DNA of 64,000 bases, from positions 516,347 through 580,346 of the forward strand of contig CAWJAX010000002.1 in assembly GCA_963841015.1 (NCBI GenBank). The letters run 5' to 3'. A program made the translations under genes and the position numbers. A model generated the notes under the pieces. The model worked only from the letters and a program-made list of their open reading frames with translations. It was not told the DNA's origin and did no database searches. Below are positions 17,745 to 61,075 of the stretch, piece by piece (positions within the stretch are counted from its first letter, which is position 1; each line of letters opens with the position of its first letter). This DNA comes from an uncultured Methanoregulaceae archaeon (GTDB lineage: Archaea; Halobacteriota; Methanomicrobia; Methanomicrobiales; Methanospirillaceae).

Positions 17745-18169
17745 GGCTTTTTTAGAATTTCTTGTGCTATGATACGATATACGAAGCACCGGTACGTTGC
17801 CGTAGGGGACAGTACCAGTCCCCCCATATCGCTCCTGCGCTTATCGATGATAATGTATTATCTGGTGGAGTAAATCGCATGTGAGGGGAGTCCCCTCGGC
17901 GGAAAAAAGCCGTTAGCGTTCAGATAGTGATTGAGTCATGAAAATTGAATTATTCAATAATCGAGATTTTTTTTTCATACTCCTCCATGCACGACGTTCG
18001 CCGCCGCCCCGCAAACGGTCGTCCCCGCGGCGGATCTGGAACAAACAATTCAAAAAAATCCTGCCCGCCATGCCTCGGAGAGGCCCTGAATCTGGGTTCC
18101 ACTGTATACATTACGATTTTCATGGTTCTGGAGTGAACCACATAGATTCATGTCTGTTTCAACAGTGAC
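17745..18169 (-). mobile_element. Modular MITE copy (B plus A)
   Basis: Ends GGCTTTTTTAGAATTTC and GTTTCAACAGTGAC; flanks TCATGTTT and TCATCCTT (6/8 TSD match); contains the GCCTC-GGA-GAGGC hairpin. Confidence 0.8.
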
Positions 18170-18344
18170 TCATCCTTTTAAAAAGTCACATCAGACAGAT
18201 TTTTCAGGGTACCGCCTCTCAGTAAAAAATTTCAGGAGGATTCAGAATTATTCCGAAACATTCAATCGATCCGCAAGCCCAGCAGAGATTACCGAATATG
18301 CACCGCAGTCCATGGGTGCGTATGCGACCAAGGAGATTCAACAT

Positions 18345-18927
18345 ATGATCGACAAGCTGCTCAAGGGAAATGAAACGTTCCGAAACACGACATTTAAGGA
18401 TCACAAGGAGCTGTACAGCGAACTGGTAAAAGGCCAGCAGCCCCCGGTCCTCTGGATCGGATGCTCTGATTCCCGGCTCCAGACCGGGCACATCACCGGT
18501 ACGCAGGCAGGCACCCTGTTCATGCACCGCAACATCGGGAATATGGCTCCGGCAAATGACTGGAGCCTTGCAACGGTCCTCGAGTATGGGATCAAGCACC
18601 TGAAAGTGCAGCATATCGTTATCTGCGGCCATTCCGATTGTGGTGCCATGAAGGCACTTGACAAGGAGCTGGAAGATTTCTATGTTCCCAACTGGCTCAA
18701 TAACGCGATTGAGGCAAAAAAGCGTGTGGACGCCCGGATCAAAAAACCTTCAACTCCGCATGAGCAGAAGGAACGATCACGGATGATCGAGCAGGAGAAT
18801 GTCCGGCTCCAGATAGAACACCTGAGTACCTATCCGATTGTTGCAAAAGCGGAAAAGGAAAAGAAGATTCAGATCCACGGCATGTATTACGATCTTGAGA
18901 ACCGGTGCCCTGACAAAAATTGTGTGA
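18345..18927 (+). CDS. Beta-class carbonic anhydrase (1-nt frameshift near the C-terminus)
   Basis: Zn-ligand motifs GCSDSR, RNIGN, ICGHSDCGAM. Removing one A near 18900 gives YYDLETGALTKIV followed by a stop. Confidence 0.92.
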
Positions 18928-19266
18928 CTATAATTCTTTTTCAATTTCCTTTTTTATCCGGTCCAGTGATATCCGCCCGATTCGGGTAACGCGTCCGTTC
19001 ACAAGGATTATGGGGAGTGGGGGAAAATCGGTTTCAATTATTTTCTGAAGGTAGTCGGGGGCACCATTATCGATGAGAGTGAGTTTTAGTTGAACGCGAT
19101 CACCATATTCCCTGGTGAGGACGTTCTTCAATTCGTCAAATGCTGCAACGAGATTTCCCGTAGGGGAGCATCCCGAGAGCCCGCAGGTGCGGTTCTCATC
19201 ACAGGGAAAGGGACTACATTCAGCGTTTTTCAGGCCGACAATTTCAACCAGTACGATACCTGTCAT
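18928..19266 (-). CDS. Small thioredoxin-fold-like protein with a 4-Cys insertion
   Basis: VEIVG...CSPFPCDENRTCGLSGC...PLPIILVNG...IKKEIEKEL. Confidence 0.7.
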   Translation of the reverse strand: MTGIVLVEIVGLKNAECSPFPCDENRTCGLSGCSPTGNLVAAFDELKNVLTREYGDRVQLKLTLIDNGAPDYLQKIIETDFPPLPIILVNGRVTRIGRISLDRIKKEIEKEL

Positions 19267-19349
19267 GGCTGTACCTGTTGGTTGAAACCGCTATATGAGA
19301 GTTCGTCATTGAGCACTCGATCAGAGCAGGAATAGAGAAATGGATGGCA

Positions 19350-19552
19350 TGAAAATTTTTTTTAAAAAAAACTTGAACACTCACAGGACTTCACCCATGA
19401 CGCTGTGACTTCCCCGAATGAGATAATCCCAGAACAGGTACTACGCCATCATCGCTCAGCGCAGGGGCGTCTGGGGGGACAGGCACTGTCCTCTCCTTCT
19501 TCTTACCCGTTCTTTGTATTTCATATGTCGATGGAAATAATTCTCCAGAGCC
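19350..19552 (+). mobile_element. Modular MITE copy (B)
   Basis: CATCATCGCTCAGCGCAGGGGC, GGGGACAGGCACTGTCC hairpin, right TIR AATTCTCCAGAGCC. Left end degenerate. Confidence 0.75.
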
Positions 19553-19604
19553 CTTATTTTATCTTCTGATAAAAGGAATTCTCCCGAATAAAAATGAACA
19601 TATA

Positions 19605-20120
19605 TCAGATAAAGCGTTCGAACCGCTCTTTTTTGACTTTGCAGATGGGGCAGATTCCCGGAGGCTGTTCGCGGGCGCAGAGATACCCGCAGACAGTACA
19701 ACGCCAGACCGGTATTGACAGGGCTGGAACAGGGCCTGTTGAAAGTGGAGGCACAGCGTTCTTTTTACCGCGGTCGGATCGTGGGGGACGACGCTCAGGA
19801 ACCGGGTCTGCGTGTGTTTTTCCTCCTGAGATATCTTCGTTGACGTAGAGTGCACAGTAACAGGCACCAAAATCATCGATATCAGGATCCCGGTAGTTGC
19901 AGGGGCAGATTATATCAAGGTCTTCTTCCTTTTTTCCCGAGGCGAGACGGCACGGGCAGGCACGGTACCCATAACGCTGCTCATTTTTCAGGAGTCCCCG
20001 TACAAGATTTTTTGTGAAACCAACATCGGGGTTCAGAAAATATCCCCCGCTCTCTGCCTCTTTTTTAATAGTCAGATAAACCCGGTCGACCTCTTTTTCA
20101 TCAGAACCCGGTGCGGTCAT
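19605..20120 (-). CDS. Ferredoxin:thioredoxin reductase catalytic domain fused to a rubredoxin-like domain (FDR-like)
   Basis: CPC, CPC and CYC motifs plus C-terminal WRCTVCGY...CPIC. Confidence 0.92.
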
Positions 20121-20398
20121 ATTTTCAAAGCCTCCCGGATCTCTTCTTCGCGGAATCCAACAATACCAATGGTATCTCTGATTACCAGCGTCGGGAACGA
20201 TCCTTTCGGGTTCCATTTCTCCACCTCATTCATGGCATCATCCTGCTCTTTTCCCTCGAGGAGATCAACAAAGGTATAGTCAAAATCTACTCCCAGTGTC
20301 CGTAACAGTTCTTTTGTCCTGGCACACCACCCGCAGGTACTCAGGGCATACAACATAACTTTACCCATCTTTTTCCCGTTCACATGTTCGACAACCAT
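20117..20398 (-). CDS. Glutaredoxin-like (NrdH-type) redoxin
   Basis: YALSTCGWC and SFPTLVI...VGF; ATGA overlap with the FTR-like gene. Confidence 0.9.
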
Positions 20399-20494
20399 AA
20401 AAAACATCCGCTATTCTGTGCATGGAGATTGCTGTAAATACTATTTAAAAATGGGGTTGCGATACGGAACGGTATCCGGGAGGCAATATTTGTC

Positions 20495-20753
20495 AAAAGA
20501 CCCCAAGAGCGTTAAGTGAGTTTTCTGATAATTTCCCATGAAAATCGCAGTATTCAGTTTTGATGGTGGAACTGTTACCAATCTATTCATCGGATAGGAT
20601 GAATGCCGCGTTCTCTGCGGTGGATCGTGGATGCTTCCAAAACTCACTGTCCCCCGTGCTCTGAGAGGCCCTGAAGCTGGGTCTTTCGTATAAAATGCGA
20701 TTTTCAAGGATCCTCTGCGAACTGAATCAATTCATGACTGTTTCTTCAGATCC
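20495..20753 (-). mobile_element. Degenerate modular MITE copy (B remnant plus A)
   Basis: TTTCCCATGAAAATC junction, GGATGAATGCCGC, GAGAGGCCCTGAAGC...TTCGTATAAAAT, end GTTTCTTCAGATCC; colinear with 28840-29148. Confidence 0.65.
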
Positions 20754-20827
20754 GTATGTTCAGCTTCCAAATGAAATGAAAAAAGACTTAACTGGTATAA
20801 GCACGTGAAAAAGGATGAAGAATCATA

Positions 20828-21325
20828 TCAGCGATTCTTCATCATCACCGTGATATCTTCAAGGAGTGCCTGTAAATCTTCCTCGTGCTCGACTTCCATC
20901 TGGAGAATCCCAAGAATAATGTTATAGGTGACCGGGTCTTTATCACGAGTCTTTTTTAAGAGGCTGTTGTAGCTCTTTATGGCGCATTGTTCGCCTTTGA
21001 TATTCTGTTCGAGCACCTTTATCACATAAGGGTCATCCGGTGCATCGTACCCGCAGTTGGTGAGTTTGTACCAATCCTGCGGTTTTGTGACCGGTGTCCC
21101 GCCCAGCTGGATAATCCGCGTGGTGAGCAGGACTGCATGCCCGAGTTCCTCGGTTGCATGGAGTGTGAGCTCGGCAATGACTGCCTCCTTGTTGGGTCCG
21201 CGGACAATCTTGGATCCAATCCAGTACTGGTAGTACGCGAGCCATTCATCAGAAAATGCCTTGTTGAGGAGCTTTACCAGATCCTCAACATTGGTATCAA
21301 CAATCTTTCTCCCTAATGTTCCCAT
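20828..21325 (-). CDS. Ferritin-like (DPS-like/bacterioferritin-related) protein
   Basis: LNKAFSDEWLAYYQY, HATEELGHA...RIIQLGG, GEQCAI, EVEHEEDL di-iron motifs. Confidence 0.9.
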   Translation of the reverse strand: MGTLGRKIVDTNVEDLVKLLNKAFSDEWLAYYQYWIGSKIVRGPNKEAVIAELTLHATEELGHAVLLTTRIIQLGGTPVTKPQDWYKLTNCGYDAPDDPYVIKVLEQNIKGEQCAIKSYNSLLKKTRDKDPVTYNIILGILQMEVEHEEDLQALLEDITVMMKNR

Positions 21326-21540
21326 GGTTTTCACCCTCAAGTGAGTCTTAGAGACAGTTGAATATCGATAGTTATCCTTTTTATGCATATCCGTCCGGTG
21401 CTTTTTTGGACTCCGTCGCGTACTGCTCCAGGTTCCCGAATCCGTTATGAGAACAGTGGAATGTCCGACAGTCCGTGTACCAAAATAAAAGGCATTGCAC
21501 TATCGTTAAGAACTATTCAGGCACACTATATTGGGAAATC

Positions 21541-22593
21541 ATGAAAGCGGTTCTGGGTCTGGAAGACGGGGATTATGTGATCGGGGAAGGTTTTGGTATT
21601 GAAGGTGAGTGTTCCGGCGAACTCGTCTTTAATACACTTATGAGCGGGTATATGGAAGCGCTCAGCGATCCCAGTTATTATGGTCAGATTTTGATGTTTA
21701 CGTTCCCGCTGATCGGGAATTACGGTGCTGATACGCAGAATATGCAGAGTACCAATGTCAAGGCTTTCGGGGCAGTCTGTCGTGAGATCTGTGAGAAACC
21801 CGATGTAAAACCCACAATACGCACGTATTTTGAACAGAACGGACTTTTGGGCATGTGTGGTGTGGATACCCGGATGCTTACCATCAAAACGAGGGTTAAG
21901 GGTACATTACGGGCGGCTCTTGTTGTCGGAGATGACAATTTCGAATACGCAGTCGAACTTGCAAAAAAGACCGCCCCCATATCAGACTATGATCTTATCC
22001 CCTCCGTTTCCTGCAAAACCCCATACCGCATTCCGGGAACCGGAAAGAAAATTGCCATTATTGATCTTGGCCTCAAGAACAATATGCTCTCAAGTCTTTC
22101 TGCCAGGAATGGTGATCTGTATGTATTCCCCTACAACACACCACCGGAAGATATTTTCCGTGTTGAACCGGATTGTCTTTTCATCACCAATGGTCCCGGG
22201 GATCCAAAGACCGCCCGCCCGACTATTGCTACTGTGAAAAAATGCATAGGTGAACTTCCCATCTTTGGCATATGCATGGGCAACCAGATTACCGCCATTG
22301 CTCTTGGAGGAGATACCTACAAACTCAAATTTGGTCACCGTGGCTCAAACCAGCCGGTCCGGTATAAGGACGGCAGAATTTTTATTACGACCCAGAACCA
22401 TGGCTTTGCCGTCGATGGAGATTCGCTTCCTGAAGGTTCAAAGGTCACGTTCACCAATGCAAATGACAAAACCGTAGAGGGTTTTGAGAGCGAAGATCTG
22501 AATATTTCGTGTGTTCAGTTTCATCCGGAAGCACACGCAGGCCCGCGTGATACGGAATGCCATTATTTTGATGGTCTTTTCAGGAGGCTTTAA
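21541..22593 (+). CDS. carA: Carbamoyl-phosphate synthase small subunit
   Basis: GELVFNT, DPSYYGQ, NGPGDP, GICMG, QNHGF, QFHPEA. Confidence 0.97.
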   Translation: MKAVLGLEDGDYVIGEGFGIEGECSGELVFNTLMSGYMEALSDPSYYGQILMFTFPLIGNYGADTQNMQSTNVKAFGAVCREICEKPDVKPTIRTYFEQNGLLGMCGVDTRMLTIKTRVKGTLRAALVVGDDNFEYAVELAKKTAPISDYDLIPSVSCKTPYRIPGTGKKIAIIDLGLKNNMLSSLSARNGDLYVFPYNTPPEDIFRVEPDCLFITNGPGDPKTARPTIATVKKCIGELPIFGICMGNQITAIALGGDTYKLKFGHRGSNQPVRYKDGRIFITTQNHGFAVDGDSLPEGSKVTFTNANDKTVEGFESEDLNISCVQFHPEAHAGPRDTECHYFDGLFRRL

Positions 22594-22595
22594 AA

Positions 22596-25500
22596 ATGCC
22601 CAAACGGCCAAATATCAAAAAGGTCCTGATCATCGGGTCCGGACCGATCCAGATTGGGCAGGCAGCAGAATTTGACTTTTCGGGAAGCCAGGCATGTCGT
22701 GCCATGCGCGAGGAGGGTGTATCGGTGGTTTTGGTGAATTCCAATCCGGCCACCATCCAGACCGACCCGGATATGGCAGACATCATTTATATCGAGCCCC
22801 TGCGGGCTGATGTTATCGCTAAGATCATCGAAAAAGAGAAGCCCGATGGTGTTCTCTCCGGCATGGGGGGGCAGACCGGGCTCAACCTGACTGCTGAGCT
22901 GGCTGAGATGGGTGCATTGAAAAATGTCGAAATCCTGGGCACACCTCTTGAAGCAATTTACCGTGGGGAGGATCGCGAAAAATTCCGGAATCTCATGATG
23001 CAGATCGGGGAACCGGTTCCAAAAAGTGTGATCCTGACTTCACTGAACCAGGTTGATGAGGCAATTAACACCGTAGGACTGCCTGCAGTTGTGCGTCCGG
23101 CATATACTATGGGAGGGGCCGGTGGTGGTATCGGGAAAACCAAAGAGGAATTGATCCGGATTATTGAACTTGGACTCTCCCGATCACGTATCCACCAGGT
23201 GCTTGTCGAACAGAGCGTATTGGGCTGGAAAGAGATCGAATTTGAAGTCATGCGGGATTCTGCGGACACCTGTATTATCATCTGTGGTATGGAAAACATC
23301 GACCCTATGGGGATCCATACCGGTGAGAGTGTGGTCGTTGCCCCGATCCTTACCCTCCGCGATGATGAGTTCCAGATGATGCGGAGTGCAGCGATTAAGA
23401 TTATCCGTGCCCTTGATGTTCAGGGAGGGTGCAATATCCAGTTTGCCTTTAATAACGGGGACTACCATGTTATTGAGGTAAATCCCCGTGTTTCGCGGTC
23501 ATCGGCACTCGCATCAAAAGCCACAGGGTATCCTATTGCGCGTGTTGCGGCAAAAATTGCGATAGGGCTGCGTCTCGATGAGATTACCAACACCGTGACC
23601 GGTTGCACCCCTGCATCTTTCGAACCCACAATTGATTACATTGTTGCCAAAGTACCCCGCTGGCCGTTTGACAAGTTCAAGGGAGCGGACCGGACGCTTT
23701 CCACCTCCATGAAGAGCACGGGAGAAGTCATGGCAATCGGGCGGACGATTGAAGAAGCTCTCATGAAGGCAAAACGCTCGATTGACACGGATGTCATACC
23801 TCACACGAGCCACAGCGAGATCCGTATGATCCTCTCCCGCCCTACCGATGAGCGTTTCCACTGCCTTTTTGATGCATTCCGTGAGGGTTTCTTGATCGAT
23901 GAGATTGTACAACTCACCTCAATTACCCCGTTCTTTTTGGAGAAGATCAAAAATATTGTCGAGATGGAAAAGCACCTTTTGACGCATCATGAACTCCAGG
24001 ATATTCTCGCGGCAAAACGATACGGGTTTTCAAATGCGGACATAATGAAGATCACCGGGCTTTCCCTTGAACGGGTTGAAGAGATGGCCGGTCTTCCCAC
24101 GTACAAGATGGTGGATACCTGTGCAGCGGAATTTCCCGCAAATACTCCGTATTTCTACTCCACGTTTGAGCAGAGCTGTGAAATTATCCCGACAGATACA
24201 AAGAAAATACTGATCCTTGGTTCCGGTCCGATACGCATCGGTCAGGGTATTGAGTTCGATTACTGCACCGTCCATGCAGTCCAGGCACTGCGGGATGAAG
24301 GTATTGAAGTCCACATCGTCAACAACAATCCTGAAACAGTATCCACCGACTTTGACACCTCAGACAGGCTCTTTTTTGAACCTATGCAGCTTGAGGATGT
24401 TGTCAACATCTTACGGAAAGATTATTATCACGGCGTGATGGTGCAGTTTGGCGGACAAAATGCCGTAAATCTTGCGGTACCTATTGAGGGGGAGATCAAA
24501 CGGCTGGGTCTTAAAACCAGAATTCTTGGCACGAGTCCGGATGCCATGGACATTGCAGAGGATCGTGACCGGTTCAGTGTCCTCCTGCAGAAACTCAACA
24601 TTCCCAGCCCGGCAAACAGTTCAGCGTATTCTGAAGGGGATGCCAGGGCAATAGCAGATAAGATCGGGTATCCGGTGCTTGTCAGGCCATCGTATGTTCT
24701 CGGGGGCAGGGCGATGGAGATTGTTCACGATGAGCGCGAACTCGAAACCTATATGAAAGAGGCGGTCCGTGTCAGTAAGAACCACCCGGTACTCATCGAT
24801 TCCTATCTCCAGAATGCCATCGAACTCGATGTAGATGCAGTCTGCGACGGCCAGGAAGTCCTTATTGGAGGTATAATGGAGCATATAGAACAGGCGGGCA
24901 TTCATTCAGGAGATTCTGCCTGCGTTATACCCACCCAGTCTCTTTCCCCGGCAGTATTGGACACGATACGGGATTATACCCGGAAGATCGCACTCGGGCT
25001 TGGGGTCGTCGGACTGGTCAACCTCCAGCTTGCGGTCAAGGATAATGTGGTCTACGTCCTTGAAGCAAATCCCCGTGCGAGCCGGACCGTGCCGTTTGTC
25101 TCAAAAGCCACTGGGATCCCTGTTGCCAAAATCGCAGCGAAGGTTATGGTCGGAAGGAAATTAAACGATCTTGGCTATAAAGAGCGCGTGCTTGAACACG
25201 TCGCAGTCAAAGAGGTTCTGCTTCCCTTTAATAAGCTCTCCGGTGTCGATACCATGCTCGGTCCCGAAATGAAAAGCACCGGTGAAGTGATGGGGATAGA
25301 CTATGATTTCGGGCTTGCCTTTTACAAAGCATGCATTTCGGCGGATAATGAACTCCCGCTCAAGGGCAATATCTTCATCTCGGTCAATATCGAGCAGAAA
25401 GATGAGGTTATTCCGATAGCACGGCAGCTGCGCGATCTCGGGCTCATATTATACGGTACTGAAGGGACCGTTGATTACCTGTATGAAGCGGGTATTGAAG

Positions 25501-25757: not shown

Positions 25758-25897
25758 ATGTGCAAAAAATCACCCGCTTTTTTCATTTTTTTGTATACCT
25801 GTTAAACATGGATTCTTACAATACATTCCATGAAAATGCGGTGTATAGTACAAATTAATTGAATATCCTTATATACCGAAATAACAAAAAAAGATGC

Positions 25898-26768: not shown

Positions 26769-26944
26769 CACAACAATAATCGTTCAGGAAAATTCAGCCT
26801 GAACAACCTTTTTTCATGCTCTTCTGAAAAGTCCTGTCAGGTTGCAAGATTATCGTAACATCCGTATCCAATAATTCTGCCCTTTAAAATATATGCTTAC
26901 ACTGCCTATCTGTGTACCATTATCATTCGAGTGGAGTACACATT

Positions 26945-28147: not shown

Positions 28148-28155
28148 AGATATCA

Positions 28156-28360
28156 TCTCTCTGGAAATGCTCAATAGTACGCTTAAAGCTCAACGGGGGC
28201 TGCACCTCCACCGCTTTGGCTCCCCCCAAATGCGATAACTCCAAAAAAGGTAATACGTCATTATCATCATTAGTGCAGGTGCAGACAGGGGGGAGGAAAG
28301 GTCCCCTCCGTCATAACCAGGGCTTTGTGTTTCACAGTAAATGCAGGGTATATTCCCGGT
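28156..28360 (+). mobile_element. Degenerate modular MITE copy (B)
   Basis: GGAAATGCTCAAT start, GGCTCCCCCCAAATGCGATAACTCC, GTCCCCTCC. Confidence 0.65.
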
Positions 28361-28444
28361 TTAAACATTAAAATAAAAAATTGATTTAAGATGTGAAAAA
28401 ATGAAAAACATAAGGTACAAAATTTAAAACAGAAAATGTTTTCA

Positions 28445-28585
28445 TTTTTTGACAAATGGATTTTTTGCTCTTATTGGGTTCAGTTCTATCGCATCTTTGT
28501 GGTCGCCACAGCGGCGGGGGCGGAGGCAAAAGCCGAAGCCCAAAGGAGCGTCATCAATGAGTTTTTGATATATCGTGAAGAAATG
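28445..28585 (-). repeat. Module D (variant of the B end), interrupted by the 28586 element
   Basis: GCCACAGCGGCGGGGGCGGAGGCAAAAGCCGAAGCCC...GTGAAGAAATG; matches 52985-53071. Confidence 0.65.
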
Positions 28586-29148
28586 GGCTATCTAGAAACG
28601 CACATGAGTCACGGACTCAGGCAAACACGATGAATAACCGCGGGTTTTTCATGGTAATTCCTTTTCCACTGATATGAAATTCAAGATACGAATGAAGGAG
28701 GGGACAGTGACTGTCCCCCCCATGCCTCCCCTGCGCTGAGCGATGATGACATAGCACCAGTTCGGGAGGTATCGCATCGGGGGGAGCCACAGCGGCAGGG
28801 GTGAAACCCCCTTGAGCGTTTAGCTTGTAATTGAGCATTTCCCATGAAAACGAACACGATGCCTGCGGTCACAGGCACACAGAACGGAAAAGTGATGGTA
28901 TTTCCATATTAAATTGTATTATTCAGATATGATGCGGAAATTATTATCATTCTATCCATCTGGTAGGATGAATGCCGCCACCCCCGACGGGGCGCCCCCG
29001 TGGCGGATCGATGACTAAAAATTTTAAAAAAAAACTCCCTGCCCCGCCGTGCCTCGGAGAGGTCCTGAAGCAGGGGTCCTTCGTATAAAATAAGATTTTC
29101 ATGGTTTGAGTGTGAACCCGATAAGTTCATGCTCGTTTCTACAGAGCA
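28586..29148 (-). mobile_element. Full-length modular MITE (E+B+insert+A, 563 bp) with 8-bp TSD
   Basis: Ends GGCTATCTAGAAAC and GTTTCTACAGAGCA; flanks AAGAAATG and AAGAATTG (7/8); reverse complement of the 39389 copy plus an insert of about 60 bp. Confidence 0.88.
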
Positions 29149-29228
29149 AAGAATTGTTCGTCGTTAGAAGGTGACTATACCAAAAAGTAAAGGGAATTCT
29201 GCAGTGCCAAACTATCTAAAAAAAATAT

Positions 29229-29633: not shown

Positions 29634-29839
29634 TTTTCACCTCATTTTACCCTGCAGGCAGATTGTGCCATAAACTCTCATGGATTCTTACTGTGCTTAT
29701 GTTTTGTGTTGCGGGAACGAATCATATCTTTTGAAAAATTCCTTTTTTTAGATAACCGTACTTGATAATAATTCAACCCTTTTCTCCAGATAAAAAAAAT
29801 CGAAACTTATATGGATTGACAATAAAGAAAAGGATACTG

Positions 29840-31339: not shown

Positions 31340-31354
31340 ACAAGGTGAAAGAAA

Positions 31355-31594: not shown

Positions 31595-31699
31595 TAAATA
31601 ATGTGTAAAATTTTTTTAGATTATTACTGTTTTTTTGCAGGGAACGTATGCATCAGGAGAATTGGGGGCTTATGCCACTGTACCTGAATACGATGGATT

Positions 31700-32105
31700 T
31701 CGCCGCCCCGCAAACGGACGCCCCCGCGGCGATTTGGGTGCACCCGAACCATGAAAATGGTCCTCTCTACGATGGATCCCCTCCTCAGGGCCTCTACGAG
31801 GCACGGCAGGCAGGAAATTTTTGAATTTTAGTTACCGATCCGCCGAACAAAGAAGCCCTGTTTTGGGGAGGTAGCAGTCATTGTGCTAGAGGTCATAGTG
31901 GTAACAATCCCCGCATCATGTCTGAATGCTACAGTTTTCAAAAGGAAATGCTCAATAACAAGCTAAACGCTCATAAGCGTCTCACTCATGTCGCCGGGAT
32001 TCACCTAACCTACCTCATGAACAGGTAATACAGCACCATTGTGATAAGCGAAGGGGCGGTATAGGGGGACAGGCACTGTCCCCTCCGCCCTCTTGCCACC
32101 AGTGA
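31700..32105 (+). mobile_element. Rearranged modular MITE copy (inverted A hairpin, then A, then B)
   Basis: CGCCGCCCCGCAAACGGACGCCCCCGCGGCG at 31701, CCATGAAAAT, GCCTCTACGAGGC, GGAAATGCTCAATAACAAGCTAAACGCTC, GGGGACAGGCACTGTCCCC. Confidence 0.75.
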
Positions 32106-32115
32106 AACTTTTTTT

Positions 32116-33027
32116 TTAATTTCCAAGAAGCCGTACCAGGAGCGCTTTCTGTGCGTGGAGCCGGTTTTCTGCCTCGTCCCAGACAAGGCTCTGGCCCCCT
32201 TCCATCACTTCATCAGCGATCTCCTGACCACGGTGAGCCGGAAGACAATGGAGCACCCGTGCATCCGGAGAGGCGTGGCGCATGAGCGCCGCATCCACGG
32301 TGTAATGGTGAAATACTTTCAGACGCTCTTCGCGTTCTTCATCATCACCCATCGAGATCCAGGTATCCGTGATGATGACATCCGCGTCCTTCACGGCTTG
32401 TTCCGGTTTCCTGACAAGGGTTACTTTCCCCCCAAGAGAATCAGCCTTCTTCACGATATCCACTGCCGGTTCATACCCTTTCGGTGTTGCCACCGTAACC
32501 TTCATGCCGGTGAGCACGGTCGAGAGAATCAGGGAGTTGCAGACATTGTTCCCATCTCCTACCCAGGCCACGTTCAGGTCATTTGTCGATCCGAAGTGCT
32601 CCCGTATTGTCATAATATCGGCAAGCAGCTGGCAGGGGTGCTCGAGATCGGAAAGGCCGTTAATCACGGGAATAGTGGCATGCCGTGCAAACTCTTCAAT
32701 CGTACTGTGTTTATAGGCACGGATCATCAGGCCAGAGACATACCGCGATGCAGCCCGTGCAGTATCGCGGATCTCCTCGCCCCGCCAGATCTGCATATCG
32801 CGGGCATTTAAAAAAAGGGCATGGCCTCCCAGTTCGTTCATTCCGACTTCAAATGAGATATGGGTCCGGGTTGAGGACTTCTCAAAGATCATGGCAAGGT
32901 TTTTCCCACGCAGCACATCGTGGACTTTCCCCTCTTTTTTCAGGGATTTAAGCTGGTCTGCTTCGCAAAGGATCTGCCCGAGCTCACCTTTGCTGACATC
33001 GAGAATTGACAGGAAATCCTTCTTCAT
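32116..33027 (-). CDS. argF: Ornithine carbamoyltransferase
   Basis: [36 protein letters not shown]. Confidence 0.97.
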
Positions 33028-34316: not shown

Positions 34317-34344
34317 GTACTCTCACGCTGGCAATAAAAATGAT

Positions 34345-37072: not shown

Positions 37073-37280
37073 TGCTCATAAGAAATGCTCTCCTCAGTAA
37101 AATAAAAAGCATTTTGTTCGACACAGGAGACCATGCCTGTTCCCATTCCCTTCCATCCCTGGGCTTAAACGCGATTGAGACGTAAGTCCTCATAAGTATA
37201 ATCGCATTGGGGGAGCCGAAGAGGCGGGGGGTGAAATCCCCGTGAGCGTTCAAGCTTTTTAAGAACATTTCCGCAGTGCC
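37073..37280 (-). mobile_element. Modular MITE copy (B)
   Basis: ATCGCATTGGGGGAGCC...GGGGTGAAATCCCCGTGAGCGTTCAAGC; end CATTTCCGCAGTGCC, i.e. TIR GGCACTGCGGAAAT. Confidence 0.72.
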
Positions 37281-37404
37281 AGTTTTTCTTCATTTTACCC
37301 GACATTCCCTCCGTAAGGGGATGCAACTGAAAGGGTGCAGGCAAATACAAGCCCTCACGAGCGGCGTAGTGAAAACGAGAGTTTCTTATAGTCTCTTATT
37401 CAGT

Positions 37405-37610
37405 GCAGGATGCAGGAATTGTAATCACTCTATTCGTCAATCACGATAAACGCCGCTGCCCCCGATGGGACGCCCCGCGGCGGATCGGTGAGCAAAACTG
37501 AATTAACCATCTGCCCCGCCATGCCTCGGGGAGGCCTGAGACGGGAATCTCTCATAGGGTAAAGATTTTCATGATTCGGTTAGACCGGATTGATTCAGGC
37601 CGGGTTTTTT
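37405..37610 (-). mobile_element. Modular MITE copy (A)
   Basis: CGCCGCTGCCCCCGATGGGACGCCCCGCGGCGGATC, GCCTCGGGGAGGC, GATTTTCATG. Confidence 0.7.
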
Positions 37611-39388: not shown

Positions 39389-39889
39389 TGCTCTGGAGAA
39401 ACGGGCATGAACTCATCGGGTTCACTCCCGATCCATGAAAATCTTAATCAATACGATAGACTCCCGCCTCAGGGCCCTGCGAGGCACGGCGGGGCAGAGA
39501 CTTTTTTTTGAATTTTGCTTACCAATCCGCCGCCCCGGTACCCCGTCGGGGGCGGCGGCAATCATCGTGTCTGAGGCAGAGAGTAGCAGCAATCCCCATA
39601 TTATATCTGAATACGTTGATTTTCATGGGAAATGCTCAATTACAATCTAAACGCCCGGAGGGGGTTTCACTCCCGCCGCTGTGGCGACCCCGATGCGATA
39701 CCTCCCGAAGAGGTGCTACGTCATCATCGCTCAGCGCAGGGGCGGCATGGGGGGACAGGCACTGTCCCCTCCTTCATTCGTGCCAGCATCTTGAATTTCA
39801 TATCAAGGGAAAAGGAATTACCATGAAAAATCCACGGTTATTCATCATGATTGCCTGAGTCCGTGACTCATGTGCGTTTTTACAGAGCT
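39389..39889 (+). mobile_element. Full-length modular MITE (A+B+E, 501 bp); used as the reference copy
   Basis: Ends TGCTCTGGAGAAAC and GTTTTTACAGAGCT; flanks ACTTTTTT and ATTTTTTT; junction motifs at 39433, 39618 and 39821. Confidence 0.88.
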
Positions 39890-40483: not shown

Positions 40484-40493
40484 TGTTTTTCCC

Positions 40494-40928
40494 GGTCGTG
40501 GAGAATGGAACATTGAATCGAGTTCGAACGCAGAACCATGAAAACCATACTTTATACGAAAGGTCTCCGCTTCAGGATTTTTTGAGGCATGGCGGGCAAG
40601 AGTTTTTGAATTTATTCGTTCCCGGTCCGCCGCGGGGACGCCTTGTTTTGGGGCGGCGGTATTCATCGTACAGGATGAAGTGAAGAGTTCCAACTCTCGC
40701 ATCATAATTGAATATTATGTTTTTCTCAGGAAATTTTTTTTTACTCTGGTATGAATTTCAAAACACTGCTACAATGACGGAGGGTACAATACCTGTCCAT
40801 CATGGACTGCCCCTATGCCAAGTGTGAGGTGACGAAATACCTGTTTGGGGAATTATTGCATTCTTGGCGCCAAAAAGCGGGAGTGAAACCCCAAGGAGCG
40901 TTCAGATTTTAAAATATTTTTACTAGCC
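40494..40928. mobile_element. Modular MITE copy with module B inverted relative to module A
   Basis: A in the 39389 orientation (40494-40730) followed by B in reverse (GCGGGAGTGAAACCCCAAGGAGCGTTCAG at about 40877-40905); TIR-like ends GGTCGTGGAGAA and TTTTACTAGCC. Confidence 0.68.
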
Positions 40929-41912: not shown

Positions 41913-42137
41913 GAGCGATTATCGATCGTGATCTGATTTTAACATATCTTCATTCACGGGATTCCTTTGTAGCAGAACAGGATATGAAAAAGCACTGGTA
42001 ATTCTGGGGGTTCTGTTTTGGGGAACCAGTTCGGCAGAGGCAAAACCCCTGCGTGTCTTATCTGGGTATTTGAGTATGACTTCTGAACATTGTACTATTC
42101 AGAAATAATCGGGAAATTTACCCCTCTCTCCTCATAC

Positions 42138-42250
42138 TCGATAATTGCCGCCTCCCCTTATGGCGCACCCTCCTGGAGGAGCGGTGAGGCTATCAGGAGG
42201 GAGGATTCCTGAACCGGATCGATTTTCATGGTTACTACCGTGAACTCCCA
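42138..42250 (-). repeat. Highly degenerate module A remnant
   Basis: CGATAATTGCCGCC...GATTTTCATGGTT...GTGAAC, matching 618-760. Confidence 0.5.
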
Positions 42251-44851: not shown

Positions 44852-45270
44852 TCGGGCTCCCTTTGCAGATTTCCGGAGATCGCAAAATCCCGTAAAGGTG
44901 TTCTTTCATATTGTCGCTAAAAATCCTGTTGAAACGATTCTCTCCGTTTTTGTTAACGATCAGCGCTCTTTTGAGAAATGTTTTAATCTGAATGCATTTG
45001 CAGTATTTTCACCCGCTGTTGTGTGCTTCCCCGCCAATGTATACCTCCTGATAAGATACTACGTCACAATTGCTCCTTGAGCAGGGGTGGGAAGGGTATG
45101 ATCGTCCTGCCTGCGCTGCAAATTTATTATCCTTATAACGGGAATTTAGCCCAGACAGAATAAGAATACCCTGTTTTGTTGAAATGCTTATTATCTGAAA
45201 ACTATAGAAAGGTTATAATTGAACAATCACCTAAAATTCTGATAGATTATATTTTTAGCAGGAAATAACC

Positions 45271-48104: not shown

Positions 48105-48300
48105 TATTTTTTGGGTATATTCACATTTCAGCGACTAATTTCTTGTTTTATTCCAACGCCCCCTTGCGCCAGCCCTGCCCCCATTGGGGGCGGGGGCGCA
48201 TGCGATTCCTCTGTATTACCGGTATACCTGATCCCTGGTTACAGAACACCATCGCAACCGGGGCGCCATAAGTGGCGGGGCGAAGCCCCTGGAGCGTCTG
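48105..48300. repeat. Module C repeat, copy 1
   Basis: TCACATTTCAGCGAC...GGGGCGGGGGCGCATGCGATTC...AACCGGGGCG...GGGGCGAAGCCCCT.GAGCGT; also present at 60880-61075. Confidence 0.8.
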
Positions 48301-48431: not shown

Positions 48432-48641
48432 AGCTCTGGAGAACTGTTCACCAGCACCTCATGTGCTAACCAGGGATTTCACCCCTCACGCTCTGGCTCC
48501 CGCAACAAAAATTTCCACAGTTACTGCGTTTTCTTCGCTCCTGGACCGCAGGGGGCGTATCAGGAAAGAGGACTGGTCCACTACGTAATCTTACCGATGC
48601 TTTGTATTTTAAATCAGAGGATAGGAATTCTCCAGAGTTTT
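48432..48641 (+). mobile_element. Degenerate B-type MITE with both TIRs
   Basis: Ends AGCTCTGGAGAA and GGAATTCTCCAGAGTT; flanks TAAAAACG and TAAACACG (7/8, allowing a homopolymer offset). Confidence 0.72.
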
Positions 48642-51141: not shown

Positions 51142-51351
51142 ACATATAGAAGAATCTTTTTCATTGATATGAAATTCAAGATGCTGGTACGAATGAAGGA
51201 GGGGACATGAGCCTGTCCCCCATGCCGCCCCTGCGCTGAGCGATGATGACGTAGCACCTGTTCGGGAGTTATCGCATCGGGGGAGCCACAGCGGCGGGGG
51301 GTGAAACCCCCTCCGAGCGTTCAGCGTGTAATTGAGCATTTCTCCAGAGCA
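51142..51351 (-). mobile_element. Modular MITE copy (B, well conserved)
   Basis: TGATATGAAATTCAAGATGCTGG...GGGGGTGAAACCCCC...GAGCATTTCTCCAGAGCA. Confidence 0.82.
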
Positions 51352-52842: not shown

Positions 52843-53075
52843 TGCTCTGGAGAATCCTTTTAAAGAAATGAAATTCAAGATGCTGGTACGCATGAAGGAG
52901 CGGACATGATCCGTCCCCCCATGCCGCCCATGCGCTGAGCGATGATGACGTGGCACCTCTTCAGGAGTTATCGCATCGGGGGAGCCGCAGCGGCGGGGGC
53001 GAAGGCAAAAACCGAAGCTGACCTTAAAAAGTGTCATCATTGAGTTTTTTTTGCTATAATGTGAAGAAATGTCAT
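52843..53075 (-). mobile_element. Modular MITE copy (B with D-type end)
   Basis: TGCTCTGGAGAATCC TIR, B core, then GGGGGCGAAGGCAAAAACCGAAGC...GTGAAGAAATG. Confidence 0.78.
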
Positions 53076-54543: not shown

Positions 54544-54752
54544 AGATCGGGAGAATTCCTTTTCCATGGATATGAAATTCACGATGCACGTACGATGAAT
54601 GAGGTGACACGAGCGTGTCCTCCCATATCGCCCCTGCTATGAGCGATGATGATGGTGCACCTTTTCGGGGTTTATCGCATCGGGGGAGCCAGAGCGGCGG
54701 GAGTGAAACCCCCTTGAGCGTTTAGTCTGCAATTAAGCATTTCTACAGAACA
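54544..54752 (-). mobile_element. Modular MITE copy (B, 209 bp) with a perfect 8-bp TSD
   Basis: GAAAATCG at 54536-54543 and again at 54753-54760; ends AGATCGGGAGAATTCC and GCATTTCTACAGAACA. Confidence 0.88.
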
Positions 54753-54809: not shown

Positions 54810-55005
54810 GATGGGAAACTGCTCAATTAAAAGGAGATGTGGTCATGGTGATTTCACCACCCCGCTCCAAATGGCTCTCCCCAATGCAAGAGATTCCGAG
54901 TCGGTAATACGTCATAATTGCTGGAGCGCAGGAGGGTATGAGGAGATAGGCACTGTCCCCTCCTTCATTATACCCGTTCTCCGAATTTTATATTGCAAGG
55001 AAATC
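54810..55005 (+). mobile_element. Degenerate B copy, opposite in orientation to the preceding copy
   Basis: GATTTTGATGGGAAACTGCTCAATTA...GAGCGCAGG...AGGCACTGTCCCCTCCTTCATT. Confidence 0.68.
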
Positions 55006-56263: not shown

Positions 56264-57650
56264 ATGCAAAAGGGAGAAAAGAGCCTGGATTATAAAATTT
56301 TTTTAGTAATTGCCACTATTATAATAATTATATTTATTGGGGGCTTTTTAATTTTACCACGGTGTACCCGCAAGTATCTGATATTACAACCCCAGGACCT
56401 GACCTGTTTTTCACCTTATACTTGTAGCTCGATTACGGCATCAAAGCTGGATGGTTCCGATGAAACCGTCAGACTCCAGAGTGCACTGAACTATGCAAAA
56501 TCCAATGGATATACTGCTGTATCTTTTCCCAATGAAGGAAAGACCGTAGGTATTTCCTATTCGGATTTACATCCCCGCAAATATGGAAATCATAGGAAAT
56601 GAATGCACAATAAAACTACTTGCCATGTCCGGGATAGGTCACTGGGGTTGGACTGTTATACTGCCCGCTGCGTCTATATCCACGACCTGAAAATAAAACG
56701 GGAATAAAGATAATCAGGAGGCACAGTCTGACCCGGATTATTATTTCCGAAAGTCTCCCAATGACGGGATGGCTTCGTGACGGGGCACGGTTCTGAGAAC
56801 AATGAAGTGTATAATTTTGGAGGGTACTCGGTTGGAGCAGTCAGAGGAGACGATATTACTATAAGCAATAATAGAATTCATGACAGTGGCAGTACGGAAT
56901 ATCAACTTCGGGTGAGGGTGATGATTATGGTAAAAATATCACTATCACAAAAAATACCTTCTCTAACTGCGGTCAGGTAGGAATAAAATCGAGGTGTCGT
57001 GCATACTGTCTGGTATCCGAAAATTCGATTCCCTTCCGGATCCGATGAGCGATCCCGACAGGAATCCGTTTATATAGTCTTGATGAACCCAACCTGCACA
57101 TTGCAATTACAAATAATACCATAACCGGTTCAGGTTCCGGGAAACTGACATAGCTATTGATTCCAATAACCGAAAATAATTCAGATATTGCTATTACCGG
57201 GAATCAGATAAAGACCGTGCATACCGGGAGAAGAATACGTTTTGATGATGCCAAGGTGATTGATAATACGATAAAGGATTCCCGTTTTACGGGTATTTTG
57301 TTACATGGCAGCAGCGGGACGATTGGGACTGCAACACCCTGAACAATGCCGGGATAATTATTGCCGGGGATAACTCCAGCGGCAATCCCTCCCATAATCT
57401 CATTCAGGATAATATGATAACCGTAAGGCAACGAGTATTGGCGAGCCAAAGGAACTGGAATCTATTTATGGTATACAACAAAGGGAAACATCATTGACGG
57501 GAGCTTAAATCAATGTTGATAATAACGCCATAAGGATAACGAATGATTACGGTGATTCCAGCGGTACTGTTAGAAAAAACAATATTCTTTATTCAAAAAC
57601 AGATTGGATATACAATAAGGGGAAATCTACAGAAATTATGAATAATACCC
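56264..57650 (+). CDS. Membrane-anchored right-handed beta-helix protein, heavily frameshifted
   Basis: N-terminal TM, DGSDET..LQSALNYA pectate-lyase-like start, and repeated I.NN.I / GI.L..S motifs. End approximate. Confidence 0.6.
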
Positions 57651-57978
57651 TGTTATTACCTCCAGGTATGTTTACACAATTCTGGAATTTTTTCAGCCCT
57701 TCTCCAGGGGATTTTCGGACTCTTGAATTAATCGCATCCGTATCCGGACAGGTGGATGGCATACGTCAGATCCACTTCGCTTATTCTCAAAGGCATCCCA
57801 GGAGAAGTGCACAGGCAATGAGTTAACGTAGAGCTCTTTTCCCCAACATTTTTAGATAAATAATCAAATCAATTGGGAGTAACGTATAACCAGCAGGTTT
57901 GATCCTTAGACGAGCACGGGTTTGCGAATTTATATGGTGTGCTAAACCATCTATGACCTATGCAGTCAAAGATATACT

Positions 57979-60086
57979 ATGCCAAATCACGAACAATCAG
58001 TTTGTTCATCGGGACTCATTATTGCAACGATACTAATAACCAATAGCGTTTCAGCAATACTGACTCCTGACCTGACATTTGTTTTTGGGAAAGGCAGGTG
58101 ACACGCCGGTCTGCGGTGACTGGGAATGGTGATGGTAAAGACACTGCTGGCGTGTATAACAGCAATGTATTCTCTCTAAGGAACAGCAACACTGCGGGAA
58201 AATCAGATATAACCTTCTCCTATGGCCTCAGTCCGGGGATATTCCTGTAGTTGGTGACTGGAATGGCGATGGCAAAGATACCGCCGGCGTGTTCGGAAGG
58301 GGGCGTTCCATCTGAGGAACAGCAACACCCGGAAAATGGTGAAATAATCTTTCCCTACGGTCAGTCCGGGGATATTCCTGGAGTTGGTGACTGGAATGGC
58401 GATGGAAAAGATACCGCCGGTGTGTTCGGAAGGGGGCGTTCCATTTAAGGAACAGCAACACTGCGGGAAAATCAGAGATAATCTTCTCCTGATGGCCAGT
58501 CCGGGGATATTCCTGTAGTTGGTGACTGGAATGGCGATGGCAAAGACACGCTGGGAGTATACCGCAATGGAAAATTCTATCTCAGGGTAACAGCAATACT
58601 GCTGGTAACGCCGACCTGATAGTATCAGTGAAATTCCTCGGGAATAAACCAATAGCCGGTGACTGGAACGGGAATGGAAAGACACCACGGGTATCATCAA
58701 AGGCAACACCTGGTATATGGATGTGAACGGAGATGGAACCTTCACCGTATCATCTCCCTATTGCAATAACATCGGTCCCGACAATTACGGTGGCAAATCC
58801 CCATGGGGGGAATCATGGGTCCGGGGAATCGACCCCCACGCTCACCTGGACGAGCTCGGGGGACGTAGGATCCTATGTCAATATTGAATTGCTGAAAGCA
58901 GGAACTGTGGTCCAGACCATATCGTTCTTGGACTCTTAACGACGGTTCCTTCGCCAGTGGACGGTTCCTGACCGGCATAACTACAGGTACTGACTACCGG
59001 ATTCGGATAACGAGTGCAACCAATGCCGCGATTACGGATACAAGCAGCACCTTCACTATCACTTCCGTATTATCAATCAGTGTGGTAACACCTGTCCCGA
59101 CGTCTGGTAAACTGCTACATCAAAAACGTTGTATTTGACTGATTACGGCATTAAAGCCGATGGTTCGGATGAAACCTGCCAGACTCCAGAGTGCGCTGAA
59201 CTATGCAAAATCCAATGGATACACAGCGGTTCTTTCTCTCCCCCCGGGCGCAAAGACGATAGGTATATCCGATCCGATTTACATCCCGGGAAAAGATGGA
59301 GATCATTGGAAATGAATGCACAATAAAACTCCTTGCCATGTCCGGGATAGGTGACGGGTCTGGACAATCGATACCGGTCCCGGGGTTGACATCCATAACC
59401 TGAAAATAAACGGGAATAAGGATAATCAACAGGCAAGTTCTGACCCGGACGATTATTTCCCAAAAACTCCCAATGACGGGATCGCGCTTCGTGACGGGGC
59501 ACGGTTCGAGAACAATGAAGTGTATAATTTCGGCGGGTATATGATCGAATCGGTAAAGGGGGACAATGTGGTAATAAAAAATAATATCATCCATGATGGG
59601 CTGGCAGTATGGGATATTATCTGCCGGGTCGGATTCAGATTACAGTAACAACCTGCTTGGTCCAACAATAAAATATACCGTATGGGTCAGGTCGGTATAA
59701 AGATCCAGCATACCTCCAACAGCCGGTTTGAGGGAAATACCATCACCCTGCCTGCACGGTATGACCTGTTCAGTGTTCCCGGTATCGGGTCTCCTGAACG
59801 AACAGGAATACGACTGTATTCCTATGATGGCCCAAACAATCACCTGACCATTACCGGAAATACCATTATCGGCACTGGCGGAAATAACGAGGTTGCAATC
59901 GAATCTGACACTTCAGCGAATAATTACATCACCATAACAAATAATCAGATAAAGAATGCCTACACAGGAATAAATGTAAAGTTTAACAACGGTATTATCA
60001 CGGGGAATACGATAGACTACGTCCGCACCTGCATCGCAAACGGTGGGAGTGGCAACACCATCAGCGGTAATTCCTGCATTGCGTAA
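57979..60086 (+). CDS. Large secreted protein: FG-GAP-like repeats, Ser/Thr-rich Ig-like domain and beta-helix; heavily frameshifted
   Basis: GDIPVVGDWNGDGKDT repeats; ITVANP.GG...LTWTS.G..VNIELLK...DYRIRITS; C-terminal ITGNTI repeats ending SGNSCIA and a stop. Confidence 0.65.
58060..58740 (+). repeat. Intragenic tandem repeat, about 5 units of about 133 bp
   Basis: CAGTCCGGGGATATTCCTG recurs at 58229, 58362 and 58497, with weaker units on both sides. Confidence 0.85.
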
Positions 60087-60424
60087 AAGTGAAAAGGCAC
60101 TCGCCGGACTGGTTGTGAGGAACGATGACTCCTCAACCCATGGAAAATGAACACTAACTTTTTTTATCCTGTTTTAACTCAACTCCTTCCTGATAGAATT
60201 CTTTGGATAGAGATGAATCCCCTTTTCTCCACAGATTGCTACCAGACTTGAGGCATAGTGTTAGTTCAGGATCAAAATCTTACTCCTTATCGATCTGGAT
60301 GCATTTTTCTTGGTTCATCAGATATGTTTCCACAATTTCTGGTTTGACGGAATTTTAACAAGAGTTGGATGTAAAGAACGGCATAATAGTGTTATATATA
60401 AAAATGTCCGATGGAATATTTCCC

Positions 60425-60864
60425 TGCTCTGGAGAAACAGGCATGAATCTGTAGGATCCACTTCAGAACCAAGAAAATCGTAATGCACATGATAAAACCC
60501 CGCCTCAGGGCCTCTCCGAGGCACGGCGGGCAAAGGTTTTTTTGAATTGTTTGTTCCAGATCCGCCGCGGGGCGATCCTTCGGGGGCTCGTGGCAATCAT
60601 CGTACATGGAAGAGTATGAAAAAAAATATCGTATCATAGCTGAATAGTTCAATTTTCTTGGGAAATGCTCAATTACAAGTGAAACGCTCGGAGGGGGTTT
60701 CAATCCCGCCGCTGTGGCTCCCCCGATGCGATAACTCCCGAACAGGTGCTGCGTCATCACCGCTCAGTGCAGGGGCGGTATGGGGAGCAGGGACTCATGT
60801 CCCCTCCTTCATTCATACCAGCATATTGAATTTCATATCAATTGAAAAGGAATTCAACAGAGCC
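60425..60864 (+). mobile_element. Modular MITE (A+B, 440 bp) with a perfect TSD
   Basis: TATTTCCC at 60417-60424 and 60865-60872; ends TGCTCTGGAGAAAC and AATTCAACAGAGCC. Confidence 0.9.
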
Positions 60865-60879
60865 TATTTCCCTCTTCGT

Positions 60880-61075
60880 GATATTTCGGGTATCGTCACA
60901 TTTCAGCGACGAATTTCTTGTTTTATTGAATGCCCCCCTCTACTCGAACCCTGCCTCCTTTAGGGGCGGGGGCGCATGCGATTCATCTGAATTACCGGAT
61001 AACTGATCCATGGTTAAACAACACCATCACAACCGGGGCGTCATAGTGGTGGGGCGAAGCCCCTTGAGCGTCTTG
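60880..61075. repeat. Module C repeat, copy 2
   Basis: Colinear with 48105-48300; ends GGGGCGAAGCCCCTTGAGCGT. Confidence 0.8.

Follow-up and report, generated by a model that had tools for sequence, protein, structure and literature searches.

Modules A, B and C, which recur along the 64,000-nucleotide window analysed here (the whole stretch C2:516347-580346 of a genome of the genus Methanoregula), are the non-coding interiors of modular MITEs (miniature inverted-repeat transposable elements). These MITEs are ordinary in kind and unusual in content. Our preferred reading, held with moderate confidence, is that they carry conserved structured modules, probably of RNA origin. The original prediction, made from the letters of the window, had seen in the hairpins a single-stranded DNA signature of the sort recognised by HUH nucleases, and that reading is unsupported. 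The host genome comprises 2.28 Mb in five contigs with a G+C content of 47-50%, and is 94% complete, which sets the scope of all the searches for absent genes reported below. Genome-wide profile searches with nhmmer (module lengths of 193, 234 and 193 positions for B, A and C, respectively) gave 124 matches to module B, 63 to module A and 7 to module C, of which the window holds 29 (16 B, 11 A and 2 C). The window is module-dense, with 16/124 of the B and 11/63 of the A matches lying in 2.8% of the genome length.

We inspected the element ends and module junctions of 65 full-length B and 31 full-length A copies. Terminal inverted repeats (GGCTCTGKAGAA... and ...TTCTMCAGAGCC) bound both B-only and composite elements. 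Full B copies run from GGCTCTGKAGAATTCC... to ...GCATTTCTMCAGAGC(C), while in the composites TTTTCATGG / CCATGAAAA junctions (56 and 61 occurrences in the genome) connect B with A and with a further module, D, the far end being again ...GTTTCTCCAGAGC. Element sizes fall into classes near 200 and 425 bp. An 8-bp target duplication with at most two flank mismatches is found in 38 of 97 end-bounded elements (15 of them perfect), compared to 1 of 97 in an offset control. The autonomous partner is a 1005-bp insertion sequence (IS) present in three copies, with perfect 8-bp duplications and with ends (GGCTYTGTAGAATTCCT... and ...TTAGCATTTCTACARAGCC) equal to those of the MITEs. Its transposase scores 211.9 bits on NF033579 (NCBIfam IS5 family, cut-off 140) and 78.3 bits on PF01609 (cut-off 23), and these three copies give the only PF01609 matches in the genome. 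The IS presumably belongs to the ISH1-like subgroup of ISfinder, with its 8-bp duplication. The earlier assignment to DDE-type MITEs is borne out by the inverted ends, the duplications and this IS5-family partner with the same ends. As the MITE ends are common to the IS, the elements are moved by a DDE transposase as double-stranded DNA. The interior of the IS is unrelated to the modules, and the core described below is absent from it. An ISL3 partner, suggested by the GGCTCT ends, was rejected: PF01610 is absent from the genome, and the partner is of IS5 type. In one IS copy, the transposase frame (C2:353265-354242) runs past the element end into the flank, giving 325 amino acids compared to about 300 inside the IS.

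The content of these MITEs extends well beyond one genome. B-like elements were found in 14 of 24 sampled congeners, and some of these share only the middle of B. The common core reads (C)TATCGC, 3-6 bases, GGGGG, 1-2 bases, GCCACAGCGGCGGGGG, a variable hairpin, CCCCC, 2-3 bases and GAGCGT. In the host genome it is carried by modules B and C, by family E and by family F (~300 bp), and family F has different ends (AGGGTAAWGT...ACACTTTACCCT). Allowing one mismatch, the 15-mer of the core occurs in 86 of 107 other Methanoregula genomes (87 of 108 when our own is included) at up to 131 copies, where a reversed-pattern control gave 0-2. Within the order, multiple copies are also carried by other genera of this taxonomic family and by a second family, with counts elsewhere at control level; in the second family the core is situated ~110 bases into elements starting GGGCTCTTGGGGGAC. 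By sequence comparison, then, the B/C core is common to at least four repeat families, two of them with unrelated ends, and to most species of the genus. Copies of family F lie outside the window at C2:505391, C2:126269, C3:546756, C3:438046 and C5:319513.

The variable hairpin within this core changes in a way that suggests a maintained fold. Among 55 aligned cores from about 45 genomes, 16 have a short form, with a GNA loop in 12 of these; the short forms after the G-run include T-GAA-A, C-GAA-G, C-GGA-G and C-GAT-G. The other 39 have an inner helix between purine-rich triplets, of which the 3' one is GAA in 14, GUA in 13, GGA in 3, GCA in 1, and other or missing in 8. Such long forms include C-GGA-[GGCA..TGCC]-GUA-G, U-CGA-[GCC AAA GGC]-GAG-A and C-AGA-[GC GCAA GC]-GGA-G. 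In the longer forms GGA or GAA on one side faces GAA or GUA on the other, making a purine-rich 3x3 internal loop below the extra helix. Judging by this alignment, the GAA 'triloop' is the collapsed, shortest form of a 3x3 internal-loop stem. Two-sided changes amount to 23 cells, compared to 5.7 ± 1.8 in shuffles (0 of 500 reached 23) and 0-9 in slid controls, and the compensated pairs on the core helices comprise G-C to A-U four times, C-G to U-A three times and G-C to C-G eleven times. The compensatory pair noticed in the original prediction, GGGGT-GAA-ACCCC in module B and GGGGC-GAA-GCCCC in module C, is part of this cross-family pattern. Because compensatory changes and helix insertions are found across families and species, the alignment supports selection on the B/C hairpin above the level of single copies. 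In the neighbouring family, two loci do not have the short hairpin after the G-run that follows the 15-mer; its place is taken by 90 or more bases of sequence that is similar in both.

Individual copies in the host genome present a different level of evidence. Most of the hairpins reported in the window are where they were said to be, with 11 of 13 exact to within 1 base. GCCTC-NNN-GAGGC is exact at 18072 (GGA), 31790, 37523 (GGG) and 60510, four occurrences compared to 0.03 expected; GGGGYGAARCCCC is exact at 28798, 48277, 51298 and 61051 (4 vs 0.00 expected); and GGGGACAG-NNN-CTGTCCCC occurs at 32065 and 39751 with the GCA loop, and in a third copy at 28700 with the loop TGA (3 vs 0.00 expected). 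The GCA-loop hairpin of module B was thus correctly placed on the opposite strand at 32065 and 39751, but the module A hairpins at 29051 (GCCTCGGAGAGGT) and 39474 (a stem minus one base) are imperfect. Loop and stem statistics were taken from the own-genome copies with a cover of 80% or more, 85 of B and 40 of A. Divergences are 0.05/0.05/0.08 in the B/C loop GAA and 0.33/0.28/0.05 in the module A loop GGA, with the G kept in 27 of 40 copies; the TGC loop of B (GCA on the other strand) has 0.18/0.20/0.10, with the T kept in 67 of 82. Unpaired columns have a mean divergence of 0.17 in B and 0.23 in A. The proposal that the loops conserve G and A and leave only the middle base free therefore holds in part: the GAA loop is kept, but its middle base is as fixed as both ends, and neither the G of the module A loop nor the A of the GCA loop is kept. 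In two of the three loops, the G or A is no better kept than other unpaired bases, an outcome that the original prediction had itself named as refuting it.

Single copies decay near-neutrally after insertion. Stem, loop and other columns diverge by 0.179/0.127/0.196 in B and 0.172/0.243/0.220 in A, and double changes at paired columns stand close to the expectation for independence (18 vs 16.2, 19 vs 13.2 and 3 vs 1.6), with slid controls alike. Decay of this near-uniform kind would be expected if the hairpins were neutral relics, functionless accidents of the master sequences, whose spread reflects old active families or transfer between methanogens and in which selection acts on the ends only. 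The same explanation is favoured by RNAalifold, which gave no consensus structure for A or B over all own-genome copies, by the covariation in module A described below, and by the orientation of the modules to genes. Relative to flanking tandem genes, B lies in the same orientation in 27 cases and in the opposite in 25, and A in 11 and 21, respectively (p=0.11); these counts use crude gene calls (open reading frames (ORFs) of at least 110 amino acids) and leave out 15 B and 2 A inside ORFs and 1 B at a contig edge. We nevertheless regard neutral relics as unlikely. Other species keep the core while flanks and ends differ, the same core occurs in families with the unrelated ends GGCTCTG... and AGGGTAAWGT..., the compensatory changes and helix insertions exceed both controls, and few columns are better kept than those of the GAA loop and the 16-mer. 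The earlier suggestion that the interior is selected for its fold can be retained to the extent that the B/C hairpin is kept above the single-copy level, but not as a signature of single-stranded or cruciform DNA.

With regard to the type of structure, the sequences lean towards RNA ahead of single-stranded DNA, because G-U pairs are tolerated on the GCCACAGC strand, GNRA tetraloops (GCAA, GUAA) occur in a few extended core forms, the internal loops are RNA-like, and the core resembles 5S rRNA. On the module forward strand, G.T and A.C mismatches in own-genome copies stand at 45:19 in the first B hairpin (p=0.0016, a value that overstates the evidence, as in all these mismatch tests, since the copies are related). 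The ratio in the GAA hairpin is 48:32, a weak excess, and module A shows no such excess. On the core helices across families, G-U mismatches number 15 and A-C mismatches 6, a difference not significant alone. Several results weigh against structured modules of RNA origin. Folding z-scores are modest and alike for RNA (-0.5 to -2.3) and DNA (-0.8 to -3.2) and for both strands. The lack of an RNAalifold consensus, given above, belongs here too, and no module promoter was found. Three metatranscriptome runs gave summed contig depths over the modules of 186, 87 and 93, compared to 0-33 in upstream argG bins and with no strand recorded in the contigs. We rejected this coverage as a sign of expression, as it reflects copy number and a DNA run piles up alike over the modules (279 vs ~8).

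Known RNA classes and coding functions were also considered. An Rfam 15 scan of the whole window gave 0 matches at gathering score. Hammerhead, twister or other ribozymes were rejected, with no Rfam match even at E 10. A K-loop or C/D-box reading of CTGAGCGATGATGA in module B was set aside since families in other species do not preserve it, and a bulge-helix-bulge splice motif since the two stretches of three bases lie opposite one another without any stagger. The variable insert lengths, which are not multiples of three, led us to reject a small ORF in B.

The resemblance to 5S rRNA is a lead with real but local support from sequence comparison. Across 401 sampled genomes of the phylum, the 15-mer has few exact matches per genome outside the two families. 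Among the 21 of these that were fetched, 17 mark the 5' end of a 5S rRNA gene, from 9 genomes in 5 families, and the remaining 4 fall in G+C-rich, non-5S sequence; two of these 5S genes score 105 and 87 bits on Rfam RF00001. In 5S rRNA the 15-mer (15/15 identity) covers loop A together with the last bases of helix I before it and the 5' strand of helix II after it. The parts of the core follow in the same order as in 5S: stem, internal loop, second helix and terminal loop, after which come the returning strand and GC-GU. Pairing of CAGC GC with GAGCGU GC, as at the base of helix II, is found in the 55 cores as 50 G-C, 3 G-U and 2 other at one position, and 53 C-G and 2 U-A at another. By our rough estimate, an exact 15-mer would be shared by chance with any universal structured RNA in well under 1 of 100 trials.

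The likeness does not extend to the whole molecule, as the core lacks helix IV/V, loop E and the 3' strand of helix I. The host's own 5S rRNA (93.1 bits) shares only 12 of the 15 bases. The Rfam 5S model finds no match at E 10 or better on any core, and across the whole genome only the true 5S passes. A 5S profile matches core positions 5-32 only, at 6.6 bits or less, and with the motif masked it matches 22 of 124 B copies, compared to 57 unmasked. In the reverse direction, a covariance model of the core gives 5S genes 11-16 bits, no more than it gives four chance 15-mer sites in G+C-rich coding DNA. A small local GCC/GGC hairpin fits the pairing data as well as the 5S-like arrangement. All of these observations count against a 5S origin. 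Homology of the whole of module B to 5S, considered because an alignment with the host's own 5S scored 29, was dropped when the 5S profile found nothing outside the motif. A 13.3-bit 5S candidate at C3:515549-515664 is ordinary non-repeat sequence. We therefore put forward only as a tentative possibility that the core of B, C, E and F derives from a 5' portion of 5S rRNA comprising the end of helix I, loop A and the helix II/III arm, was acquired by at least two unrelated MITE families, and has spread through the Methanoregulaceae and a neighbouring family at up to ~130 copies per genome.

If such descent were real, these elements would be an archaeal, DNA-transposon counterpart of the 5S-derived short interspersed nuclear elements (SINEs) of eukaryotes. 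Those elements, SINE3 and its relatives, are retroposons that use the internal RNA polymerase III promoter of 5S. They likewise are mobile, non-autonomous elements with a core resembling the 5' part of 5S rRNA, whereas here the carrier is a DNA transposon and the likeness covers ~25-30 bases plus topology. Archaea are not known to have an internal 5S promoter of this kind. Descent or mimicry would also name a concrete partner, the 5S-binding ribosomal proteins: transcripts through the elements would display a mimic of the uL18/uL5 binding site, which could stabilise those transcripts or tie the elements to ribosome assembly. We know of no earlier case of an rRNA-derived core in a prokaryotic MITE.

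Module A is also widespread: BLAST detects it in 100 of the 107 other Methanoregula genomes. Its core consists of two G+C-rich hairpins around an A/T tract, and both strands of the full module contain a T8 run. The sequence is strongly conserved, including the unpaired CCGTG and CCCTGA, and the GGA loop is present at 30 of 40 loci in other genomes. No conserved single-copy source of its 16-mer was seen elsewhere in the phylum sample. With the gene calls described above, we find 22 of 61 A and 36 of 108 B copies between convergent genes; the background share of such intergenic regions is 19% by number or 23% by length. Due to the T8 run on each strand and this excess at convergent gene ends, we suggest that module A may act as a two-way transcription stop. 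Compensatory changes do occur (U-A to C-G five times, C-G to U-A twice, G-C to A-U four times), but the covariation total of 14 cells lies within slid controls (5-17). The unpaired stretches are as conserved as the stems in 48 sequences, which fits a protein site or recent spread equally. A terminator scan of 17500-37499, requiring a stem and then a T-rich run within 2 bases, did not flag module A; the T8 run starts 5 bases after the stem.

This equal conservation of paired and unpaired blocks brings in a further explanation, that the 16-mer, GAGCGT and the CCGTG/CCCTGA of module A are double-stranded DNA sites bound by the transposase or by a chromatin or regulatory protein of the host, with the palindromes being by-products or dimer sites. 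The P2 bases never vary, and the random orientation of the modules relative to genes would also suit such sites. We consider them improbable, and more so than neutral relics, since the halves of the B/C palindrome are spaced by 3 to more than 20 bases with pairing kept, which a duplex dimer site would not tolerate; moreover, G-U rather than A-C is tolerated, and the autonomous IS lacks the core.

The weakest explanation is that the hairpins fold as single-stranded or cruciform DNA, stabilised by d(GNA) loops, and are recognised by an HUH protein (RAYT- or TnpA-like) or another single-strand-specific protein. Purine-rich internal loops are stable in DNA too, and DNA folding z-scores reach -3.2. 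The C-GAA-G of module C and the C-GGA-G of module A match, in loop and in C:G closing pair, the very stable mini-hairpin type d(C-GNA-G) reported in PMC3201870 and PMC13037366, of which d(GCGAAGC) is an example. The closing pair is T:A in B, however, and G:C for the GCA loop, and for d(GCA) loops PMC3201870 reports a G:C closing pair to be ~3 kcal/mol weaker than C:G. The GAA loop also departs from the d(GNA) type in its fixed middle base, and its bases belong to an internal loop instead of a triloop in longer relatives. Related families carry TTT, AAT, GTT or AAC as loops of the homologous first hairpin. In module B the two GNA loops are on opposite strands, GCA on one and GAA on the other. 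The elements share with REP/RAYT and IS200/IS605 systems short G+C-rich hairpins repeated between genes. HUH elements are without inverted ends and target duplications and show strand-biased insertion; here there are inverted ends and 8-bp duplications, module orientations alternate along contigs, and no strand bias is seen along contigs or relative to genes. Searches of the genome for Y1 HUH genes, a check that the original prediction had proposed, gave 0 matches to PF01797, and those for TnpB (PF07282) likewise gave 0, with positive controls recovered; reverse transcriptase and IS110 genes were also searched for in this genome and none were found. With the loop G or A not kept in two of three loops, and G.T exceeding A.C on one strand only, we judge this explanation very improbable.

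Returning to conserved structured modules of probable RNA origin, the IS5-family DDE transposase moves the elements in trans, and the hairpins are features of the source copies, kept at family level. The core keeps its extended stem by compensatory changes and by gain or loss of the whole inner helix. Read on the strand of GCCACAGCGGCGGGGG, it may be a folded-RNA-type domain, either derived from or mimicking the 5' region of 5S rRNA that includes loop A, the helix I end and the helix II/III arm. It would act, if at all, in read-through transcripts, for example as a stable structured end, or alternatively as a site bound by a 5S-binding ribosomal protein. Module A most likely would stop transcription from both sides, and this could render insertions harmless.

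Compared to IS5-family ISs and archaeal MITEs already known, the elements are alike in their inverted ends, 8-bp duplication, short non-coding body, many copies and IS5-type autonomous partner, but differ in that the interiors are modular, unrelated to the inside of the IS and conserved across the whole genus. It is only the ends of MITEs that are usually regarded as having features of note. Structured intergenic repeats are known from bacteria, such as the pneumococcal BOX (boxA-B-C) and RUP, the Correia elements of Neisseria, ERIC, and BIMEs/RIMEs; these bacterial mosaic repeats are modular, with local hairpins, intergenic and mobilised in trans, and some affect transcript ends. The present elements resemble BOX, RUP, Correia, ERIC and BIMEs in modular build, strong local hairpins, intergenic position and mobilisation in trans. 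They differ from them in having an archaeal host and a 5S-like core that is found again in repeat families whose ends differ and in two taxonomic families within the order. A Methanoregula genome is reported to have the highest IS content of its phylum (PMC13343696), and a census of prokaryotic MITEs does not name the genus in its main text (PMC11602168). In the literature consulted on MITEs and repeats of Methanoregula, on the structure of archaeal MITEs and on 5S-derived MITEs, these repeats are not described, and the supplements of PMC11602168 may list them. In these metagenome-assembled genomes, the ~200 modules per genome account for most long intergenic regions and for assembly breaks. 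Here a methanogen genus of environmental importance keeps two internal modules in more than 100 species-level genomes, and one of them recurs in families with different (putative) transposases; together these facts point to selection on the cargo and not on movement alone.

Three composite MITEs were delimited within the window. A 563-bp D-B-A element on the plus strand (28586..29148) has the ends GGCT.TCTAGAAAC... and ...TTTCTACAGAGC and 8-bp flanks AAGAAATG/AAGAATTG; it contains module B at 28656..28843 (+, 190.5 bits; hairpin GGGGACAG-TGA-CTGTCCCC at 28700, 5S-like core with GGGGT-GAA-ACCCC at 28798) and module A at 28911..29146 (+, 223.5 bits; imperfect GGA hairpin at 29051). On the minus strand, a 501-bp element (39389..39889; A-B-D as read on +; flanks ACTTTTTT/ATTTTTTT) contains A at 39392..39625 (-, 198.8 bits; imperfect hairpin at 39474) and B at 39627..39819 (-, 200.8 bits; GCA loop read on + at 39751). 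The third, also on the minus strand (60425..60864, 440 bp, A-B as read on +), has a perfect 8-bp duplication, TATTTCCC, and contains A at 60427..60657 (-, 214.7 bits; hairpin at 60510) and B at 60660..60854 (-, 185.2 bits). Module D is a ~70-bp left arm, GCTCTGTAAAAACGCACATGAGTCACGGACTCAGG..., at 28587-28655 and 39820-39889, and its end resembles the inverted right end of module A. The left side of the first composite, at 28586, is adjoined by a family E copy (28440..28590, +) with the core in its long form, GCCACAGCGGCGGGGG-C-GGA-GGC-AAAA-GCC-GAA-G-CCC..GGAGCGT. Family E has three further copies in the genome, at C2:466916, C3:309184 and C2:457957.

The other B copies on the plus strand lie at 51156..51344 (196.7 bits; GAA hairpin at 51298), 54554..54745 (173.0 bits), 8318..8509 (139.9 bits), 52855..53003 (truncated, 126.5 bits), 17756..17935 (110.0 bits; joined to module A at 17939), 40735..40912 (97.4 bits) and 37100..37272 (decayed, 84.9 bits). 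Those on the minus strand are at 19363..19536 (132.8 bits), 28163..28340 (123.1 bits), 31944..32128 (109.3 bits; GCA loop read on + at 32065), 54814..55001 (108.1 bits), 48438..48627 (decayed, 84.9 bits) and 44973..45146 (strongly decayed, 51.6 bits). Further copies of module A are found on the plus strand at 561..787 (208.5 bits), 17939..18165 (200.6 bits; GCCTC-GGA-GAGGC at 18072), 37395..37608 (142.5 bits; GGG loop at 37523) and 20539..20750 (132.9 bits), with fragments at 42084..42187 (36.0 bits) and 31666..31741 (29.8 bits), and on the minus strand at 40514..40725 (151.9 bits) and 31736..31940 (150.3 bits; hairpin at 31790). The two C copies are both on the plus strand, at 48108..48299 (208.0 bits; core GCCATAGTGGCGGGG, then GGGGC-GAA-GCCCC at 48277 and GGAGCGT) and 60884..61073 (202.5 bits; GAA hairpin at 61051).

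The genes of the window include those for type III RuBisCO, tetraether lipid synthase and methanogenesis marker 14. In the host rRNA operon (C5:34999-38120), a tRNA lies between the 23S and 5S genes. Two sets of repeats in the window are separate from the MITEs. A unit of ~101 bases (repeat family D3), unrelated to the modules, is present in three tandem copies at 58228-58596 with a spacing of 133-135 bases. Finally, 56522-56883 and 59235-59596 share three collinear direct repeats (D12, D16 and D17) that are 72-83% alike and 2712-2713 bases apart, and these are probably two paralogous coding stretches.

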